Shown one piece after another: positions 18,387-39,009 of a stretch of DNA of 40,561 nt. Within the stretch, counting starts at the first letter, position 1, and every line of letters starts with the position of its first letter. The DNA is taken from the IMG/VR virus record IMGVR_UViG_2734482585_000012, one strand, 5' to 3'. The translations under genes and the position numbers were made by a program. Below the pieces are notes generated by a model. It was not told the origin of the DNA and ran no database searches. It saw nothing but the letters and a program-made list of their open reading frames with translations. The stretch comes from a virus (lineage: Duplodnaviria; Heunggongvirae; Uroviricota; Caudoviricetes).

Positions 18387-19844
18387 TTAGGAGCGCCAAA
18401 AAAAACCTGAAAACAATATAATAACAGGATAAATTTCAAGGCGACCAAGAATCATAGCTATGCACATTAAATATTTTGCAATGTCATTAAGCACTCCGAA
18501 TGACGATGCAGTAGCCCCAAAACCTAATCCCATATTATTAATACATGCAGCCACTGTTGCAAATGATGTAAGAAAATCATATCCCATACCATTTAACACC
18601 AGTATAAAAAACACCGTGAAGAGAGTATAAAGAAAAAAGAAACTCCATACAGACCTCATTACACGATCTGTAACTATCTTCCCTCCTACATTTACACTCA
18701 ACAACGCTCTGGGATGAGAAAGCTGATTTATCTCGTGTTTGCTTTGTTTGAAAAGTATAAGAAATCGAAGTGACTTAATTCCACCACAGGTTGAACCTAT
18801 ACATCCCCCAAAGAAACTTGACAACAGCAAAAACACTATCGTGTGCGTGGGCCAGTTTGCATAATCCTGCGTAGCTAAACCATTATCAGTGAGCATGGAG
18901 CTGGCAAGAAAAAACGAATGAATAAAACTTCCATGCAAGTCATACATACCTATATGCCAGACCTGGAAAGAGGTAACAATGATCACCCCTAAGGCTATTA
19001 ACAGAAAGAAACGAAGTTCAATATCTCTGATTAAAGGTTTTATCGTTTTTCTGCTAATAACAATATACCAAAGAGTGAAGTTGAAAGCCGATAGCAGGGA
19101 AAAAGAACCAGCCACCAGCTCAACCAAATAGTTATTAAAATATCCGATACTCTCGCTATGAGTTGAGAAACCACCAAGCGAAACTGTGGAAATCCCGTGA
19201 CAAATAGCATCAAACAAAGGCATTCCTGCAAGTCTATAACAGACAATACAAGCAATACCTAATAAAGAATAAGTTATCCACAGTGTCCGTGACGTATCGG
19301 CCAGGCGGGGAGTGAGTTTGTCATCCTTAAATGGCCCCGGCATTTCTGACTGATAAAGCTTTGCACCACCAATACCCAATAATGGCAATACTGCAACCGC
19401 CAGAACAATAACTCCTAAACCACCTATAAAATTTAACTGTGACCGATAGTACAAATATGCCCGAGGTAATGAACTAACATCATCAATTACAGTTGCTCCT
19501 GTTGTTGTTATTCCAGAAACCCCTTCAAACAGAGCATCAATGAACGTTAAATTAAGTTCTGAGTCAATCCATAAAGGGAATGCACTAATAACAGAAAACA
19601 AAATCCAAAACATTACAATTATAATAAACCCATCACGGGTACGTAATTGAATGCCAGATTTCTTAGTTGTATACCACGCTCCGCCACCAATGCAAAAAAA
19701 TATAACGAAAGTTATAAAGAAAACGAACAGGCTTTTTTCTTTATAAAACAATGCTACAACCATTGGTGGCAACATTGAAAGACTATAGAGCCAAACCAGG
19801 AACCCACACATATGAGTAACAACTCTTACATGAGATGTATTCAT
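18387..19844 (-). CDS. trkG: TrkG/TrkH-family potassium uptake protein
   Basis: 485 aa from MNTSHVRVVTHMCGF…; polytopic membrane protein; the Rac prophage is known to carry trkG; region visibly AT-rich. Confidence 0.9.
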   Translation of the reverse strand: MNTSHVRVVTHMCGFLVWLYSLSMLPPMVVALFYKEKSLFVFFITFVIFFCIGGGAWYTTKKSGIQLRTRDGFIIIVMFWILFSVISAFPLWIDSELNLTFIDALFEGVSGITTTGATVIDDVSSLPRAYLYYRSQLNFIGGLGVIVLAVAVLPLLGIGGAKLYQSEMPGPFKDDKLTPRLADTSRTLWITYSLLGIACIVCYRLAGMPLFDAICHGISTVSLGGFSTHSESIGYFNNYLVELVAGSFSLLSAFNFTLWYIVISRKTIKPLIRDIELRFFLLIALGVIIVTSFQVWHIGMYDLHGSFIHSFFLASSMLTDNGLATQDYANWPTHTIVFLLLSSFFGGCIGSTCGGIKSLRFLILFKQSKHEINQLSHPRALLSVNVGGKIVTDRVMRSVWSFFFLYTLFTVFFILVLNGMGYDFLTSFATVAACINNMGLGFGATASSFGVLNDIAKYLMCIAMILGRLEIYPVIILFSGFFWRS

Positions 19845-19981
19845 ATCTAAATATTCTTTCAATTATAACCACCTTGCTGCAATATTATGATTATACTGTA
19901 TAAAATTTAACTCCTCTTAGATCTTACTTCACTGTTCCTTATGAAACAATCATCAAAATGAATCATATTGTAGTTAAGATT

Positions 19982-20446
19982 TTACTTTAAACACTGCTCG
20001 GTTATGTATTGCTGAGCACCTTCAAGTTGGGCCTGCATCATTACCAGTCGTTCCCGGAGGGTGAAATAATCCCGTTCAGCGGTGTCTGCCAGTCGGGGGG
20101 AGGCTGCATTATCCACGCCGGAGGCGGTGGTGGCTTCACGCACTGACTGACAGACTGCTTTGATGTGCAACCGACGACGACCAGCGGCAACATCATCACG
20201 CAGAGCATCATTTTCAGCTTTCGCATCAGCTAACTCCTTCGTGTATTTTGCATCGAGCGCAGCAACATCACGCTGACGCATCTGCATGTCAGTAATTGCC
20301 GCGTTCGCCAGCTTCAGTTCTCTGGCATTTTTGTCGCGCTGGGCTTTGTAGGTAATGGCGTTATCACGGTAATGATTAACAGCCCATGACAGGCAGACGA
20401 TGATGCAGATAACCAGAGCGGAGATAATCGCGGTTACTCTGTTCAT
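19982..20446 (-). CDS. Spanin inner-membrane subunit Rz
   Basis: 154 aa from [16 protein letters not shown]… with N-terminal TM and coiled-coil; ATGA overlap with endolysin stop. Confidence 0.85.
20041..20226 (-). CDS. Spanin outer-membrane lipoprotein Rz1 (embedded in Rz, +1 frame)
   Basis: 61 aa, lipobox VVGC, proline-rich (PPPPP…PPP), entirely nested in Rz. Confidence 0.8.
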
Positions 20447-20892
20447 TGCTGACCCCACAAACAGATTTCACGCTCAATCTCACGACGAGTCATGAGACCT
20501 TTCCATTGCTTACCGCCAGCATATGTCCAGCGACGTAGCTGATCACATGCGCCTTTGATATCGCCCTGGTTTATTTTGCGAAGAAGCGTCGATGTTCTGA
20601 AATTGCCAGCACCCACGTTGTAAACGAATGAGTAAAGAGCGCCGCGCGTTGTTTCCGGTATATCGACTTTGATGTACGGGTTAATTTGTCTGGCGACAGT
20701 GGCAAGGTCTTTATTCAAGAGTGTTTTGCATTCTGCTTTGGTATACGTTTTACCGAGCATGATGTCTTTTCCTGTATGCCCGTGACATACAGTCCATACA
20801 CCAACAATATCTTTGTATGGTATGTAGCTGACACCTTCCAGACCATCGTTACCACTTGGGCCAGTGATTAACACTGATGCTATAGCAATTGC
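20443..20892 (-). CDS. SAR endolysin (P21 R-type lysozyme), 5' end in assembly gap
   Basis: Frame stays open upstream of the ORF-track start up to the gap (…[20 protein letters not shown]…), i.e. a glycine/alanine-rich signal-anchor-release segment precedes the lysozyme catalytic region. Confidence 0.8.
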
Positions 20893-21142
20893 NNNNNNNN
20901 NNNNNNNNNNNNNNNNNNNNNNNNNNNNNNNNNNNNNNNNNNNNNNNNNNNNNNNNNNNNNNNNNNNNNNNNNNNNNNNNNNNNNNNNNNNNNNNNNNNN
21001 NNNNNNNNNNNNNNNNNNNNNNNNNNNNNNNNNNNNNNNNNNNNNNNNNNNNNNNNNNNNNNNNNNNNNNNNNNNNNNNNNNNNNNNNNNNNNNNNNNNN
21101 NNNNNNNNNNNNNNNNNNNNNNNNNNNNNNNNNNNNNNNNNN
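20893..21142. other. Assembly gap (250 N)
   Basis: Run of n characters. Confidence 1.
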
Positions 21143-21154
21143 CATGGATTTCAT
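21143..21154 (-). CDS. Holin start (class II/pinholin-like dual-start Met-Lys-Ser-Met), remainder in gap
   Basis: Minus strand reads GGAGGTGAGGCT ATG AAA TCC ATG immediately before the N-run; MKSM dual start recalled from S21-type holins. Confidence 0.5.
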
Positions 21155-21258
21155 AGCCTCACCTCCGCACGGAACGGATGGCATAGTTATTATGTGTAGG
21201 CTTTCAGACACATCAATCAGAGCCTTAATTGATATATATGCTGGAGACGATGCAATAT

Positions 21259-21283
21259 AAAAAGCTCGCCGTAGCGAGCTAAT
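21259..21283 (-). terminator. Intrinsic terminator-like hairpin between lipoprotein gene and lysis cassette
   Basis: agctcgc-cgta-gcgagct perfect 7-bp stem; on minus strand followed by TTTTTATATT. Confidence 0.4.
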
Positions 21284-21405: not shown

Positions 21406-21801
21406 CTAACCTCGCATGTCAAAGCCAGATTTCTGAAAATCTCTGTAGACTTCCGGATTGTTGAAGGCCGGAAATTTGGCTTTATGAGCTGCGGACTTTA
21501 TCGCTTCGCAATAGGCTTTATCACCGTTACTGGTAGATATTTTTAACGCCGTGCCATCCTGAGAGAATTCCATATGCAACCTGCATTTTTTCCCTTTCCA
21601 GTTATGCGGCTCATCAAGTTTGGCATTAATTGCAGCTCTGATTCCCCGCGCTTGCGCCCCCCATTCATCCTGATCATCCCAGCGTCCTGAACTGCAACTA
21701 CCTGTAGCAGTAGTTTTGTGGCAATCTGAAGGGTGTAAAGGTGTGCATCCCGCAACAAAACCGACCCAAAAAGTCAACATAACGATTTTCTTTAATCCCA
21801 C
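21406..21801 (-). CDS. Lipoprotein with TolA C-terminal (domain III)-like fold
   Basis: 131 aa; signal peptide plus lipobox VAGC; C-terminal region aligns by eye with E. coli TolA domain III, including two conserved Cys. Confidence 0.6.
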   Translation of the reverse strand: MGLKKIVMLTFWVGFVAGCTPLHPSDCHKTTATGSCSSGRWDDQDEWGAQARGIRAAINAKLDEPHNWKGKKCRLHMEFSQDGTALKISTSNGDKAYCEAIKSAAHKAKFPAFNNPEVYRDFQKSGFDMRG

Positions 21802-21951
21802 TTCTTGCTCCTCAATCCATTAAAATCTCAGCAATAGTAGTTGTTACGTCCGCCACTGGCTCAGAGCTGACTATCCGCTAAATTTAGCTCAGTGCCGTAG
21901 CTGTGTCAGAACAAACCTAAGCCGAAACCGTTTATTACAAAACAATAAATA

Positions 21952-22380
21952 TCAGGGTTTAAAATCCAGCACCCCATTTTGAAATACTTTATATACTTCC
22001 GGCGAAGGGGGGGCAGGTATATCAGCATTCTTTATCGCATTCATCGCTTCACGACATAAATCGAGGTCTCCACTTTCTCTTTTAACCTCCAGTAGAAGGC
22101 CATTCGGGGCCATATGCATTCTCAGTGTACACTCTTTTCCTGAATACTTACTCGCATCCCCGAACTGTTTTTCGATGGCGCTCTTGATTTGATGGGCATA
22201 CAGACGGATATCCTCACTAACATCAGAAGTACGTTCAGATGAACTCACATACTGTGTCTCTATTGCTTTATCGGAGTAATATGATGTACGGTCATGATAA
22301 TTTGTCGATACAGCATCAGTGCACCCGATAATAATCCCACTAATAATCAACGTAAGAATTGATGCGCTACGAAAACCCAT
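21952..22380 (-). CDS. Lipoprotein with TolA C-terminal (domain III)-like domain
   Basis: 142 aa; lipobox IIGC; C-terminus …HQIKSAIEKQFGDASKYSGKECTLRMHMAPNGLLLEVK…LCREAMNAIKNADIPAPPSPEVYKVFQNGVLDFKP closely resembles the TolA C-terminus as I recall it. Confidence 0.7.
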   Translation of the reverse strand: MGFRSASILTLIISGIIIGCTDAVSTNYHDRTSYYSDKAIETQYVSSSERTSDVSEDIRLYAHQIKSAIEKQFGDASKYSGKECTLRMHMAPNGLLLEVKRESGDLDLCREAMNAIKNADIPAPPSPEVYKVFQNGVLDFKP

Positions 22381-22971
22381 TTTTCCTCACATATGTCATA
22401 TAGTAAAGGATTATATATACCGTTGTTTTGGACGCTCAAACAGCGAATCAGATCAAATAAAACGCACATTTGTTAACATTTACACAAAGTCTGCGTGGGA
22501 TATTCTGAAAGAATATCCATAATGTGGAGAGAATCTATTGAAGTGCATGGTGCCGGGTGCCTCCCGGTGAACAAAATGTTCGTGATACCTGTCGGCGACA
22601 GAAAAGGTTAATGGTATCACCCCACCGCACAGGGGGATTCACCATGCAGGAGTTTTCTTAGCAAACTCACTGCGCGCCCGGCAACTCCCAACCACATAAA
22701 ATGCGGAGTTTGTGGCATTTATGCATATAACTCGCAGGAATTATCTTAAAAAACTGATGTCGATCCGGATTAAAAAGAAGCAGGTCATCATCAGATGACT
22801 GGAAAAAAGGAAAACAAAAAATACTCATCATACAGTTTTGATTGCAGGGATGAGCCTGCTATGCACAATATGCAGAATATAAGCAAGATAAAAATATGCA
22901 GGCATATTATTTCGGATCTTGTTATTAACACAACCTTTTTAATAATCATTTGGCATACAATAAACCAGCCC

Positions 22972-23424: not shown

Positions 23425-23967
23425 TCAAGCCATTTTCTCAGCAAATGATTCACGCATGGGAATATATAGGGCATACTCAGCAACAGCTAACCAATTAGCA
23501 ATCCGTTTTTCGCATGTGCTAAAACACCACTCTGGGTGTGCATCATTTAGCAATTCAGCCATTTTGCGCTTAGTCATCCCCCGCCCTTCATAGCGTTGCC
23601 GGAGAATGCAAATCAATCCTGGATGCTCTGCCAGCACCTCACTTATGACTCGATCAATACATAACGCCTCTGCATCAGTACAATGCGCCAGCCAGCTCTT
23701 TTGCTTGCCGTTGATCATCTCTCGCAAAAACGCTTCCAGCTCAGCTTTCTCTATTCCCGCTTTTTTCATTCTGCGCAGGGCTTCATTAATGGCTGTTTTC
23801 GTCAGTTTTTTGGATGCCAACAACTGATTGAACATATTCCCTGACCTGCCACCGCCAATATACGACCAGCGCCCCCACATACGTAGTTTTCCCTGAATCC
23901 AGACACTTTCCAGCGTGGTGAGGCGAAGGTGTTCTCCGCTTTTTCCTGTATTCGTTGGGTAAATCAT
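23425..23967 (-). CDS. Late-gene antiterminator Q
   Basis: 180 aa with LRMWGRW motif resembling the Q-family signature; position immediately upstream of the late promoter/terminator and lysis genes. Confidence 0.75.
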   Translation of the reverse strand: MIYPTNTGKSGEHLRLTTLESVWIQGKLRMWGRWSYIGGGRSGNMFNQLLASKKLTKTAINEALRRMKKAGIEKAELEAFLREMINGKQKSWLAHCTDAEALCIDRVISEVLAEHPGLICILRQRYEGRGMTKRKMAELLNDAHPEWCFSTCEKRIANWLAVAEYALYIPMRESFAEKMA

Positions 23968-26625: not shown

Positions 26626-27627
26626 TTAGTAATCTGCGTGTTTCGCACTTTTCAGAAATGCTTTCATATTTTCATTAGGTCGCTCAATTTCGAAGTTACT
26701 TCCATATAACTCTTGTAATTTTGGCCATAACTTACTTAATAACCCTCTCCTGCGATAAAATGGATGTATCCAAACGGTAGATAGGTACGGAGAATTTGCA
26801 TTTGAATTGTTTATTGTGACCAGCCCAACTAAACATTGTCGATAACCACTATTATCCATTGATTGTATTTCTTCGACGAATGGATACGCGATTACATCAG
26901 TCCAACCATGATCGGTTGTATCCCATTGCATTCCGTCATGACATTCCTTCGACTGATAGCGGCGTAAAGCTACACACGCGAGCTTTTGCCAATCTGGAGA
27001 ATTAATTGTGATCTCTTCATCGTATGACGCGCCTATTGGAGCGGGTATTGGTCTGATTAATCCAGCATGGCATTCATCATAGAACTTCATGTTTCCCTCA
27101 GAAACGTTGTGTACGTTGGGTTGCTCCATGTGTGCGCCATTCAAAAATAGCTCTGATAGTAGTGTATCTACACTGTAATCTTTATTGATTATTGTCGGCT
27201 TAGAGTTTTTCTTATTAAGGCCGCGAGTAACGATTTTTTGATCAATGTTAACAACATGGAATAATCCGTCGGGGAGGCTAGCGAACCACGATGGGGCATC
27301 GGACCAGAATAGCATGCCTTTTGTACTTCTTAAGAGTTTAATTAAGTTAATACAAGCTTCTTCACTAGTCTTGCCGTTGATGCGAAGTATGTTAGGACTA
27401 AAGTAATATTCATCCATATCAGGGAATGCAGCTTCGCAAAACTCCTGTACATAATTTAGCACCTGGATTCTACAGAGATCATCATAGCTGGTAATAACTA
27501 AGGGGGTATCTTCATTACTATTATGATTATCAATAATGCAATCTATAGCGAGACTTACTGCTTTGCGTATCACTTCAGTTGAATCTAACGACTCTAAAAA
27601 TTTTGTCTTTCGTGTGCGAATATCCAT
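26626..27627 (-). CDS. Hypothetical protein B of unrecognised two-gene cassette (possible C-terminal GNAT-like region)
   Basis: 333-aa ORF, AT-rich, 15 bp downstream of protein A; C-terminus …CLVGLVTI…WIHPFYRRRGLLSKLWPKLQELYG loosely resembles an acetyltransferase motif A. Confidence 0.6.
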   Translation of the reverse strand: MDIRTRKTKFLESLDSTEVIRKAVSLAIDCIIDNHNSNEDTPLVITSYDDLCRIQVLNYVQEFCEAAFPDMDEYYFSPNILRINGKTSEEACINLIKLLRSTKGMLFWSDAPSWFASLPDGLFHVVNIDQKIVTRGLNKKNSKPTIINKDYSVDTLLSELFLNGAHMEQPNVHNVSEGNMKFYDECHAGLIRPIPAPIGASYDEEITINSPDWQKLACVALRRYQSKECHDGMQWDTTDHGWTDVIAYPFVEEIQSMDNSGYRQCLVGLVTINNSNANSPYLSTVWIHPFYRRRGLLSKLWPKLQELYGSNFEIERPNENMKAFLKSAKHADY

Positions 27628-27642
27628 GTATGACCTGCGCTA

Positions 27643-28665
27643 TTAAAATTCATGAATGAACGGTTTGTCATCTGGTTGCAAAATGGTGGTTTTATTCGTT
27701 GCTACATTTAAACTGTTGTAGAGCATAATTGCCAGGTTCGATGCATTTTCAATCAGCGTTTCAAGATCCTGGTCTGTAATCACTACGAGGTTCCCTTCTT
27801 TATCCTTTCCACCACGATGCACTAAGTGATTTCGATTGAGGGTTGCCAATTCAATAGCTTCTATCGGACAGTCTTTTTGTACTTTTATATCGAATGTAGC
27901 TTCATAGCGGTCGATTACCTTTTTAGTGCTATGCCAGCTTGCACTGATCAAGTGTTCCTTGATTGACCTGATTAGCTCTCCCCTAATTTTCTCGATGGGT
28001 TCACCCTTGAAAGGCAACGCAGCAATATCTTTGCTTACTTTAAATTCAGTCTTACCTTTTTCTATACAATTGGCTATGTAGACATCATCTTTCTCTATAG
28101 AATTAATGAATAGCTCAACATAAAGCGTTTCCAAAGCTGTAATAACATTCGTGTAGAGCAAACTAAGCAAGTGGTTTTTTTGCTGTTGTTCAGTTTTATC
28201 TTTTGCAAGTTTTTTTATTTTATCGATATTATCAATGAATTTTAAATACGGATTACCGGAAGACGTTACAGCGTCGTAGATATCATCATCGTACCAATCA
28301 TCTATATTATTTGAGTTTCCAGACCAGTCAAAACATTGTGTTTGTAATTCATCTACTAATTCCTCAATATACTCAGATTTAACATATTGACCGAAGATGG
28401 ATTGTAGTTCTTCGCTCGCATCATACGGCCCGCCATATATGTAAGCATAGCCACCTTCTCTACTTTCATACGGACAAGCATTTGCCGGATCTTCAAAGTT
28501 TTCAAAGAACCAGTTTTTCATTACTTCGAGTTGATCTTTTTTGCTTATGTATTTTAAAGATTTTAGTGGAACTTTCTTTCCATTAACCTCGAAAACAATT
28601 TTCACGATGTAACGCTCCCTTGTATCAATTGCGCAACTATTATACCACAGCGAAATACAGGGCAT
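27643..28665 (-). CDS. Hypothetical protein A of unrecognised two-gene cassette (candidate HEPN-like C-terminal motif)
   Basis: 340 aa from MPCISLWYN… with strong SD AAGGAGG; C-terminal …LATLNRNHLVHRGGKDKEGN… fits Rx4-6H with polar residue after R; AT-rich. Confidence 0.6.
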   Translation of the reverse strand: MPCISLWYNSCAIDTRERYIVKIVFEVNGKKVPLKSLKYISKKDQLEVMKNWFFENFEDPANACPYESREGGYAYIYGGPYDASEELQSIFGQYVKSEYIEELVDELQTQCFDWSGNSNNIDDWYDDDIYDAVTSSGNPYLKFIDNIDKIKKLAKDKTEQQQKNHLLSLLYTNVITALETLYVELFINSIEKDDVYIANCIEKGKTEFKVSKDIAALPFKGEPIEKIRGELIRSIKEHLISASWHSTKKVIDRYEATFDIKVQKDCPIEAIELATLNRNHLVHRGGKDKEGNLVVITDQDLETLIENASNLAIMLYNSLNVATNKTTILQPDDKPFIHEF

Positions 28666-28803
28666 AACCTGCCTCCTTAAACTAACATACCATGAGCCAG
28701 CAATGTCCGCTATTGGCACAAAGCGGACAACCACGCTAGCTCTCCCCTGTGCCAGAAAAATGTCAATTTACATATGAACTAATGCTCTTTGATCTAGTAA
28801 CGT

Positions 28804-38820: not shown

Positions 38821-39009
38821 ATGTATAAAATTACCGCCACTATTGAAAAGGAAGGTGGCACTCCTACTAACTGGACAAGATATTCAAAATCTAAACTAAC
38901 GAAATCAGAATGCGAAAAAATGCTCTCAGGTAAAAAAGAAGCAGGCGTTTCCAGAGAGCAGAAAGTAAAACTGATAAATTTTAATTGCGAGAAACTTCAG
39001 TCCTCGTGA
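38821..39009 (+). CDS. ydaC: YdaC-like small protein
   Basis: 62 aa from MYKITATIEKEGG… with SD GGAGGTG; within ORF 38749..39009. Confidence 0.5.
   Translation: MYKITATIEKEGGTPTNWTRYSKSKLTKSECEKMLSGKKEAGVSREQKVKLINFNCEKLQSS

Follow-up and report, generated by a model that had tools for sequence, protein, structure and literature searches.

Why would a prophage carry two copies of a periplasmic co-receptor domain of its own host? The question is raised by IMG/VR virus record IMGVR_UViG_2734482585_000012, a 40,561-nucleotide (nt) stretch of tailed-phage DNA (referred to as the window, meaning the whole stretch analysed, in the rest of the text). In this window, two tandem open reading frames (ORFs) lie between the gene for a Q-like late antiterminator and the lysis cassette. 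An earlier note on this DNA had proposed that both code for lipoproteins resembling domain III of TolA (TolAIII) and that they might act as secreted decoys. We report here that both products are predicted lipoproteins carrying a copy of TolAIII, and we tentatively favour the view that they serve as membrane-tethered decoys for Tol-dependent colicins and filamentous phages.

Two predicted lipoproteins carrying TolA domain III

The two genes are adjacent and on the same strand:

21952..22380, minus strand: gene for the 142-amino-acid (aa) lipoprotein; signal peptide, lipobox IIGC (Cys20), a linker of about 32 residues modelled with low confidence, and a predicted copy of TolA domain III at about residues 53-142
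21406..21801, minus strand: gene for the 131-aa lipoprotein; signal peptide, lipobox VAGC (Cys19), a Cys-containing linker at residues 20-44, and a diverged predicted copy of TolA domain III at about residues 45-131

The 142-aa ORF starts with ATG and has GAGGA 4 nt upstream; the 131-aa ORF starts with GTG and has GAGGAG 6 nt upstream. The Prokaryotic Genome Annotation Pipeline (PGAP) places the start of the latter at an internal ATG, giving a product of 124 aa. We preferred the longer form because plasmid homologues of the gene have ATG exactly where the prophage copy has GTG. Both N-termini (MGFRSASILTLIISGIIIGC followed by TD in the 142-aa protein and MGLKKIVMLTFWVGFVAGC followed by TP in the 131-aa protein) contain a charged n-region, a hydrophobic h-region and a lipobox of the form [LVI][ASTVI][GAS]C within the first 15-35 residues. 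The ORFs, the two lipoboxes and the residue other than Asp at position +2 had all been pointed out in the earlier note and were recovered here on the minus strand, the +2 residue being Thr in both proteins. According to the Lol +2 rule, Thr at this position predicts sorting to the outer membrane. We infer that both proteins are lipidated and sorted to the outer membrane, the sorting being read from the +2 rule only; in the plasmid copies the +2 residue is Ala. Signal peptides differ among the members sampled from the two families, yet all have Gly-Cys in the lipobox except one 131-family sequence, which has Cys-Cys, and 112 of the 121 members of the 131-aa family match the lipobox together with PLHPS.

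The likeness of the C-terminal 80 or so residues to TolAIII, including two conserved cysteines, was supported by Pfam, by matches to solved structures and by BLASTP alike. Against the Pfam family PF06519 (TolA C-terminal, gathering score 25 bits), the 142-aa protein scored 82.6 bits (E 2.4e-23) and the 131-aa protein 54.6 bits (E 1.3e-14). The solved E. coli TolAIII chains 1s62, 3qdp, 2x9a and 1tol were matched with E-values of 5e-28 and 5e-9, respectively. BLASTP against TolA 334-421 aligned the 142-aa protein without gaps over TolA 336-421, with 52 of 86 residues identical (60%), and the 131-aa protein, also without gaps, with 26 of 77 residues identical (34%). The last residue of each protein corresponds to TolA P421, and the TolA disulfide cysteines 363 and 388 align with C84 and C109 of the 142-aa protein and with C73 and C98 of the 131-aa protein. 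The C-terminal alignment that the earlier note had quoted (...IPAPPSPEVYKVFQNGVLDFKP in the 142-aa protein against ...IPKPPSQAVYEVFKNAPLDFKP in TolA) proved to be correct. In AlphaFold2 models, the domain was predicted with a local distance difference test score (pLDDT) of about 90, and above 90 in the 142-aa protein, while the N-terminal 40-50 residues were of low confidence. Foldseek superposed the 142-aa domain on 2x9a_B with a target-normalised template modelling score (TM-score) of 0.96 and a root-mean-square deviation (rmsd) of 0.6 Å, and the 131-aa domain on 3qdp with a TM-score of 0.92 and an rmsd of 1.1 Å. Pairwise alignment and structure prediction thus both bear out a resemblance that had been read by eye. 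On these profile matches and models, the two proteins are lipobox-bearing copies of TolA domain III, with homology and fold both secure.

Full-length TolA models gave a different picture. NF007065, with a cut-off of 213 bits, was failed by both proteins (107.8 bits for the 142-aa protein and 53.7 bits for the 131-aa protein). The 131-aa protein also failed TIGR02794 (47.2 bits for a cut-off of 59.45), which the 142-aa protein passed at 75.6 bits by its C-terminal domain alone. What is matched is confined to positions 293-386 and 304-382 of a profile of 387. Judged by these models, the two proteins are not TolA.

RefSeq, through PGAP, nevertheless labels the 142-aa ORF of strain ECCHD184 'tolA, incomplete, missing N-terminus', a pseudogene of which only the last 261 nt are annotated. 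Taken at its word, this flag implies that the ORFs are the decaying fragments of a captured tolA, which we regard as highly improbable. The frame of 142 codons, with its start and Shine-Dalgarno sequence, is unbroken in alleles of the 142-aa gene at 91% and 66% identity, which have a different but valid signal peptide that ends in the lipobox Gly-Cys. The ratio of nonsynonymous to synonymous substitution rates (dN/dS) is 0.26-0.39 over the whole 142-aa gene and 0.09-0.35 in its domain. For the 131-aa gene it is 0.08-0.15, and across genera it ranges over 0.06-0.15 in this family. Both genes are therefore under purifying selection, and the constraint is stronger in the 131-aa family. A near-identical 142-aa gene is found in about 780 complete genomes, and its poly-C tract (window 22008-22014) counts seven C in all 78 IMG/VR viral loci where it can be read. 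This constancy disposes of phase variation at the tract, which we had considered. Some database proteins (P0010, P0015) are frameshifted at their C-terminus at this tract, probably through assembly errors given that the tract is invariant in the viral loci. Because both genes are under purifying selection, the RefSeq pseudogene label looks wrong.

The linkers of the two families behave differently. That of the 142-aa family evolves fast (dN/dS 0.39-0.78), unlike that of the 131-aa family, in which signal peptide and linker together have a dN/dS of 0.07-0.18 and conservation of the linker across genera equals that of the folded domain (mean top-residue frequency 0.96). To judge from these alignments, such conservation is unexpected for a passive tether. 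The 131-aa linker (residues 20-44, window 21670-21744, minus strand) reads TPLHPSDCHKTTATGSCSSGRWDDQ and contains two extra cysteines. Part of it may resemble the 'TolB box' of colicins (SSGRWDDQDEWG against DGSGWSSENNPWG of ColE9), but AlphaFold2 places the second half of the motif in helix 1, which speaks against a disordered epitope.

Ligand-binding edges and the proposed function

TolAIII is contacted by its ligands at two strands. Colicin A binds strand β2 (L375-P380) with cation-π contacts to K368, K379 and K396 (PMC3365938). The N1 domain of g3p, colicin N and the N-terminus of TolB bind strand β3 (A415-K420), for the most part by hydrogen bonds of the backbone at D418 and K420 (PMC4339652, PMC7391070). 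Transferred through the ungapped BLASTP alignments, and as a mapping of sequence only, these sites read as follows:

Strand β2, the colicin A edge: LLDIKP in TolA, LLEVKR in the 142-aa protein, ALKIST in the 131-aa protein
Positions K368, K379 and K396 of TolA: H89, K100 and K117 in the 142-aa protein; E78, S89 and H106 in the 131-aa protein
Strand β3, the g3p, colicin N and TolB edge: APLDFK in TolA, GVLDFK in the 142-aa protein, SGFDMR in the 131-aa protein

The 142-aa protein retains two of the three colicin A-site lysines (K379 as K100 and K396 as K117), K368 being replaced by H89, and by this mapping it keeps both ligand edges. The 131-aa protein would keep at most the β3 edge.

We favour, with confidence a little short of even, a function as tethered decoys for Tol-dependent colicins and filamentous phages. 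Each lipoprotein would expose a TolA domain III, free at the end of a flexible tether hung from the outer membrane. The translocation domains of group A colicins and g3p-N1, seeking the TolA tip in the periplasm, would bind the tethered copy instead and, as this copy is uncoupled from the TolQR motor, import would come to a halt. A lysogen equipped in this way would be tolerant of Tol-dependent colicins and resistant to phages of the Ff/If type. Transcription in the lysogen probably starts at a promoter of the pair's own, with read-through from the late promoter once the prophage is induced. The model supposes that the lysogen makes both proteins, that these bind g3p or colicins, and that protection follows. 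The word 'secreted' in the earlier proposal does not stand, as the predicted products are membrane-tethered rather than free.

Several lines of evidence argue for decoys: the secure homology and fold, the mapped ligand edges of the 142-aa protein, the conserved lipobox Gly-Cys together with a dN/dS below 0.4, and an anatomy in keeping with a moron, namely a promoter-like site, two genes and a terminator-like hairpin in a slot where some phages have the pair and otherwise similar ones lack it. Moreover, the architecture recurs on mobile elements exposed to the same threats, filamentous phages and bacteriocins, among them the Klebsiella bacteriocin plasmids described below. Levengood-Freyermuth and colleagues are said to have obtained colicin-tolerant cells in 1993 with periplasmic TolAIII. 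The pili of IncI, IncK and IncB/O plasmids are receptors for If1-type filamentous phages. The g3p of an If1-type phage binds TolA (PDB 2x9a).

Other observations weigh against this interpretation. If1 has been grown on IncI1 hosts, and any protection by those plasmids must therefore be incomplete or limited to some of them. Colicins kill by a single hit, and a decoy must therefore catch nearly every molecule. The 131-aa protein, with ALKIST as its β2 strand, has none of the three colicin A-site lysines, and members of its family occur as stand-alone chromosomal genes among metabolic genes, in a non-mobile context, in Enterobacter and Citrobacter, where a physiological role therefore fits as well as defence. 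If a TolAIII copy can still bind the N-terminus of TolB, it should interfere with Tol-Pal at some cost to the cell; in the laboratory, periplasmic TolAIII is in fact used to make E. coli leak periplasmic proteins (PMC6195910). No functional study of the gene pair or of the family was found in a full-text literature search, and neither protein had a family match at E up to 1 among the defence models of PADLOC-DB 2.0, which speaks against a known defence system.

The β3 edge points to another function. TolB shares this edge with g3p and colicin N, and of the ligand sites it is the one best preserved in the two proteins (GVLDFK and SGFDMR). As Tol-Pal modulators, the tethered domains would bind the N-terminus of TolB on TolB-Pal in competition with TolA. 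Pal mobilisation would be switched off locally, and the resulting weaker outer membrane and additional vesicles would aid late lysis and the release of phage or cargo. We consider this, the main rival of the decoy interpretation, unlikely. It would account for the position of the genes directly upstream of the lysis cassette in a Q-dependent late transcript, it agrees with the leakage caused by overproduced periplasmic TolAIII, and few parts of the 131-aa family are better conserved than its C-terminal helix-and-strand segment. However, these genes are missing from many lambdoid phages whose holin, endolysin and spanin set is the same, and the promoter-like and terminator-like signals of the pair suggest expression outside lysis. 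The family is also kept on plasmids and at conserved chromosomal sites, where constitutive membrane damage would be costly, and the tandem domain of TonB on Klebsiella plasmids, described below, would go unexplained.

Carriage by mobile elements and genomic setting

The 142-aa family, all alleles included, was detected in 898 of 5426 complete E. coli genomes, with copies almost all chromosomal, and the 1.2-kb gene pair at 99% identity or more in about 780 of them. The pair was found in one (mEp460_ev081) of 50,697 deposited phage genomes. The family thus lives mainly in prophages. The two genes are adjacent in all 77 IMG/VR contigs with room for both; in one of the 77, the gap between them is about 1.35 kb instead of about 150 nt and may hold an insertion sequence. 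The 142-aa family always occupies the Q-to-holin slot and is almost confined to prophages; its diverged alleles sit in the same slot, where they follow Q genes of other types (PF03589-type and DUF1133-type) and have no 131-aa gene beside them.

The 131-aa family, with 368 clusters, ranges much more widely. On conjugative plasmids of the IncI1/B/O and IncK groups, its gene comes directly after that for the relaxase. A member with 88% amino-acid identity is carried by IncF plasmids of the pO157 type (L022 6965-7396 and L023 5965-6396), between a psiB/psiA/hok leading-region remnant and toxB. Homology of the prophage gene with its plasmid and chromosomal relatives is confined to the ORF and about 35 nt, and the 131-aa gene therefore looks like a separately acquired cassette. 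A conserved motif is found upstream of 131-family genes, as TTCTGACACAGCTACGGCACTGAGC at window 21887-21912 (minus strand) and as GCTCTGACAGAGCTATGGTACTGAG on plasmids (L003, L004 and L022); it contains the palindrome GCTCTG-A-CAGAGC and could be an operator or an RNA hairpin.

More distant relatives occur on plasmids of Klebsiella. The 10,060-bp ColRNAI plasmid NZ_CP031718.1 of K. pneumoniae (L012 1512-2245) codes for a lipoprotein with the TolA C-terminal domain (lipobox LTAC, PF06519 E 2.4e-24), followed by a secreted TonB_C protein with a signal peptide (PF03544 E 8.9e-11), and the two genes adjoin an operon for a cloacin-like bacteriocin, its immunity and lysis. A pair of TolA and TonB C-terminal domains covers both routes of colicin import, and is hard to explain by Tol-Pal physiology alone. 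On a Klebsiella IncR plasmid (L013 5217-6246), a lipoprotein with the TolA C-terminal domain (lipobox ITAC) is encoded directly downstream of a thioredoxin-fold (DsbA/TraF-like) gene. A DsbC-family gene also lies near the relative on an IncK plasmid (L004) and, with the thioredoxin-fold neighbour on the IncR plasmid, may be linked to the disulfide of the domain.

An exhaustive search of 1.84 billion cluster representatives returned 333 relatives. Among the best 150 of these, 68 were short and stand-alone, at least 41 of the 68 with a lipobox and others with an ordinary signal peptide. By these counts, TolAIII is often exported on its own, apart from the rest of TolA, in a widespread, so far unstudied architecture.

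The conserved chromosomal copies and the unusually conserved linker of the 131-aa family lend themselves to a third interpretation. The proteins could be envelope housekeeping or adaptor proteins that travel on mobile elements as passengers, with no tie to colicins, phages or TolB, the 131-aa family especially having its own periplasmic partner bound through the TolAIII-like fold and the Cys-rich linker. Dozens of distinct clusters of short secreted or lipidated proteins with TolAIII only exist, and the 131-aa family adds to this a stand-alone gene whose non-mobile surroundings are conserved in several genomes of Enterobacter and Citrobacter, very strong selection across genera, a linker with two extra cysteines that is as conserved as the domain, and the loss of the colicin A-site residues. 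Yet at least three kinds of mobile element in E. coli (prophage, IncI-complex plasmids and pO157) captured the gene independently, in the form of a tight cassette of the ORF and about 35 nt, and such capture points to a benefit in any host. Its 142-aa partner, moreover, is a close TolA copy found almost only in prophages. We judge an adaptor function improbable too.

The recurrence of tethered or exported import domains invites a proposal wider than the decoy function of the one prophage pair, and one that we advance with more reserve, as plausible but doubtful. Prophages, conjugative and virulence plasmids, and bacteriocin plasmids of the Enterobacterales might share an undescribed form of defence consisting of exported, motor-uncoupled copies of import hubs (a TolAIII lipoprotein and, in some cases, the TonB C-terminal domain), which would trap Tol- and Ton-dependent bacteriocins and pilus-dependent filamentous phages just inside the outer membrane. 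Two paralogues, as in the window, would widen the range.

The other features considered are these:

23425..23967, minus strand: Q-like late antiterminator (PHROG 753 'anti-termination protein Q-like', E 2e-79; DUF1133 family protein in PGAP)
22491..22677, minus strand: full-length match to Rfam STnc100 (RF02076; 86.6 bits against a gathering score of 47, E 2.3e-17)
22410..22439, minus strand: sigma-70 promoter-like site TTGAGC-18 nt-TATAAT, with 10 of 12 consensus matches, about 30 nt upstream of the 142-aa start
21263..21280, minus strand: intrinsic-terminator-like hairpin AGCTCGC-TACG-GCGAGCT followed by a T-run, from a consensus scan, between the 131-aa gene and the holin region
20893..21142, no strand: run of 250 N, masking the holin gene (essD by homology) and the 5' end of the endolysin gene
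from 20443 (block 19982..20874, the 5' end reaching into the N run), minus strand: endolysin (PHROG 7, E 1.4e-67)
19982-20458, minus strand: Rz-like spanin (PHROG 13, E 1.5e-78)
20041-20226, minus strand: Rz1-like lipoprotein ORF, part of the downstream context
18387-19862, minus strand: trkG, directly after Rz/Rz1 (PGAP name from the near-identical locus L005)
38827-39005, minus strand: RalA antitoxin small RNA (sRNA), near the recET end

Read along the minus strand, the order is Q, about 750 nt of non-coding DNA, STnc100, the promoter-like site, the 142-aa gene, 150 nt, the 131-aa gene, the hairpin, holin, endolysin and Rz/Rz1. With Q upstream and endolysin and Rz/Rz1 downstream, the location between Q and the lysis cassette is as the earlier note had it. 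The masked holin is inferred to be essD from the near-identical locus L005, which has essD, rrrD and a lysis protein at this place. ORFs listed across the N run (for instance 20849-21211) are artefacts; a second run of N, of 263 bases, lies at 652-914. The positions of trkG, after Rz/Rz1, and of RalA, close to the recET end, identify the window as a Rac-type lambdoid prophage and a fuller relative of the Rac prophage of K-12; a recET/ralR/xis/int module is present in L005. K-12 Rac lacks the Q-to-lysis segment, and K-12 therefore lacks these TolA-like genes.

The Q-to-holin position corresponds to the stx/nanS-p slot of lambdoid phages, and the genes are laid out as in a moron. Behind three types of Q, DUF1133-type and Antiterm-type among them, this position is taken by the pair, by only the 142-aa gene or by other cargo (nanS-p-like), a presence and absence at a module junction that is typical of morons. 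The consensus scan gave 11 promoter-like sites in total against 7.4 expected by chance. Phage mEp460_ev081 has kept the site at 22410-22439, and loci L018 and L019 have it with a single change in the -10 hexamer. This site and the hairpin at 21263-21280 are called promoter-like and terminator-like on consensus matches. The STnc100 element travels with the 142-aa gene in L002, L018 and L019, where homology spans from the 142-aa stop codon through the element; it may be the leader of the late operon, a short terminated transcript of that operon, or a prophage sRNA. SOS control, as in colicin operons, was rejected for lack of a CTGT-N8-ACAG box anywhere in the window, and no tRNA genes, such as occur in Stx phages, were found in the gap between Q and S.

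Farther upstream, two adjacent ORFs of 333 and 363 aa (window 26626-28734, minus strand) have weak Pfam hints (GNAT and a HEPN/RES N-terminal domain). They occupy a variable slot between the replication genes and the nin-like region and may form a defence cassette; the near-identical prophage of ECCHD184 has 7 kb of transporter/LysR cargo in this slot.

Implications and comparison with known systems

Similarity to TolA was already on record in RefSeq product names, and the family is PHROG 5772, labelled 'unknown function'. What the pair presents is TolAIII redeployed as a lipoprotein on mobile elements. One paper mentions a 'TolA protein' on a cloacin-like Klebsiella plasmid in passing, and another calls a ciprofloxacin-induced gene of CP-933O, a possible homologue, 'TolA'-type. 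If the two lipoproteins are decoys, about one in six sequenced E. coli strains would owe to a mobile element a broad tolerance to group A colicins and Ff/If-type phages, and pO157 and many IncI-complex plasmids would confer the same. Such a 'co-receptor decoy' would be added to the mechanisms of exclusion and would bear on colicin ecology in the gut, on antimicrobials based on colicins or phages, and on phage display hosts. If they act on Tol-Pal instead, they would be natural regulators of outer-membrane stability and vesiculation, of the kind that the Tol-Pal field has called for (PMC7391070). On either interpretation, a real and common gene pair is hidden in the annotation behind a RefSeq pseudogene label, in the case of the 142-aa gene, and a shortened start, in that of the 131-aa gene.

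The closest comparison is TolA itself. Both ORF products have in common with TolA domain III (1s62, 3qdp, 1tol and 2x9a) the PF06519 family, the disulfide cysteines, the C-terminal end point and a predicted fold of three helices and a three-stranded sheet. E. coli TolA, however, has an inner-membrane anchor (domain I) and a long helical domain II; the ORF products have a lipoprotein signal peptide and a short linker in their place, and so lack the link to the TolQR motor. TolA is encoded in the tol-pal operon, whereas the two ORFs lie in the late region of a prophage. The Klebsiella lipoproteins described above share the succession of lipobox, linker and PF06519 and the mobile carriage with the prophage pair, but they are only 27-35% identical to the 131-aa protein and are also uncharacterised. 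Their neighbours are the TonB_C gene and bacteriocin operon on the ColRNAI plasmid and the thioredoxin-fold gene on the IncR plasmid.

Llp of T5, Cor of phi80, N15 and HK022, and TraT of F are small outer-membrane lipoproteins of mobile elements that are expressed from the resident element. By blocking a receptor in the outer membrane (FhuA or OmpA), they shield the host from incoming phages, and Llp and Cor also protect against colicin M. The prophage pair likewise consists of small lipoproteins of a mobile element, with predicted placement in the outer membrane. The two proteins show no sequence relation to Llp or Cor, matching only PHROG 5772, 'unknown function'. Unlike Llp, Cor and TraT, which block a receptor in the outer membrane, they are copies of a periplasmic co-receptor of the host.

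In the work of Boeke and colleagues (in 1982), g3p of a resident filamentous phage reportedly acts on TolA by titration, with colicin tolerance and phage exclusion as the outcome. This case and that of recombinant periplasmic TolAIII involve the same interacting partners and the same logic of titration as the decoy function proposed here. Resident g3p is a phage protein acting on the TolA of its host, and periplasmic TolAIII is a laboratory construct. The prophage pair, in contrast, consists of natural genes of a mobile element, which would supply the cell with surplus, membrane-tethered TolA tips.

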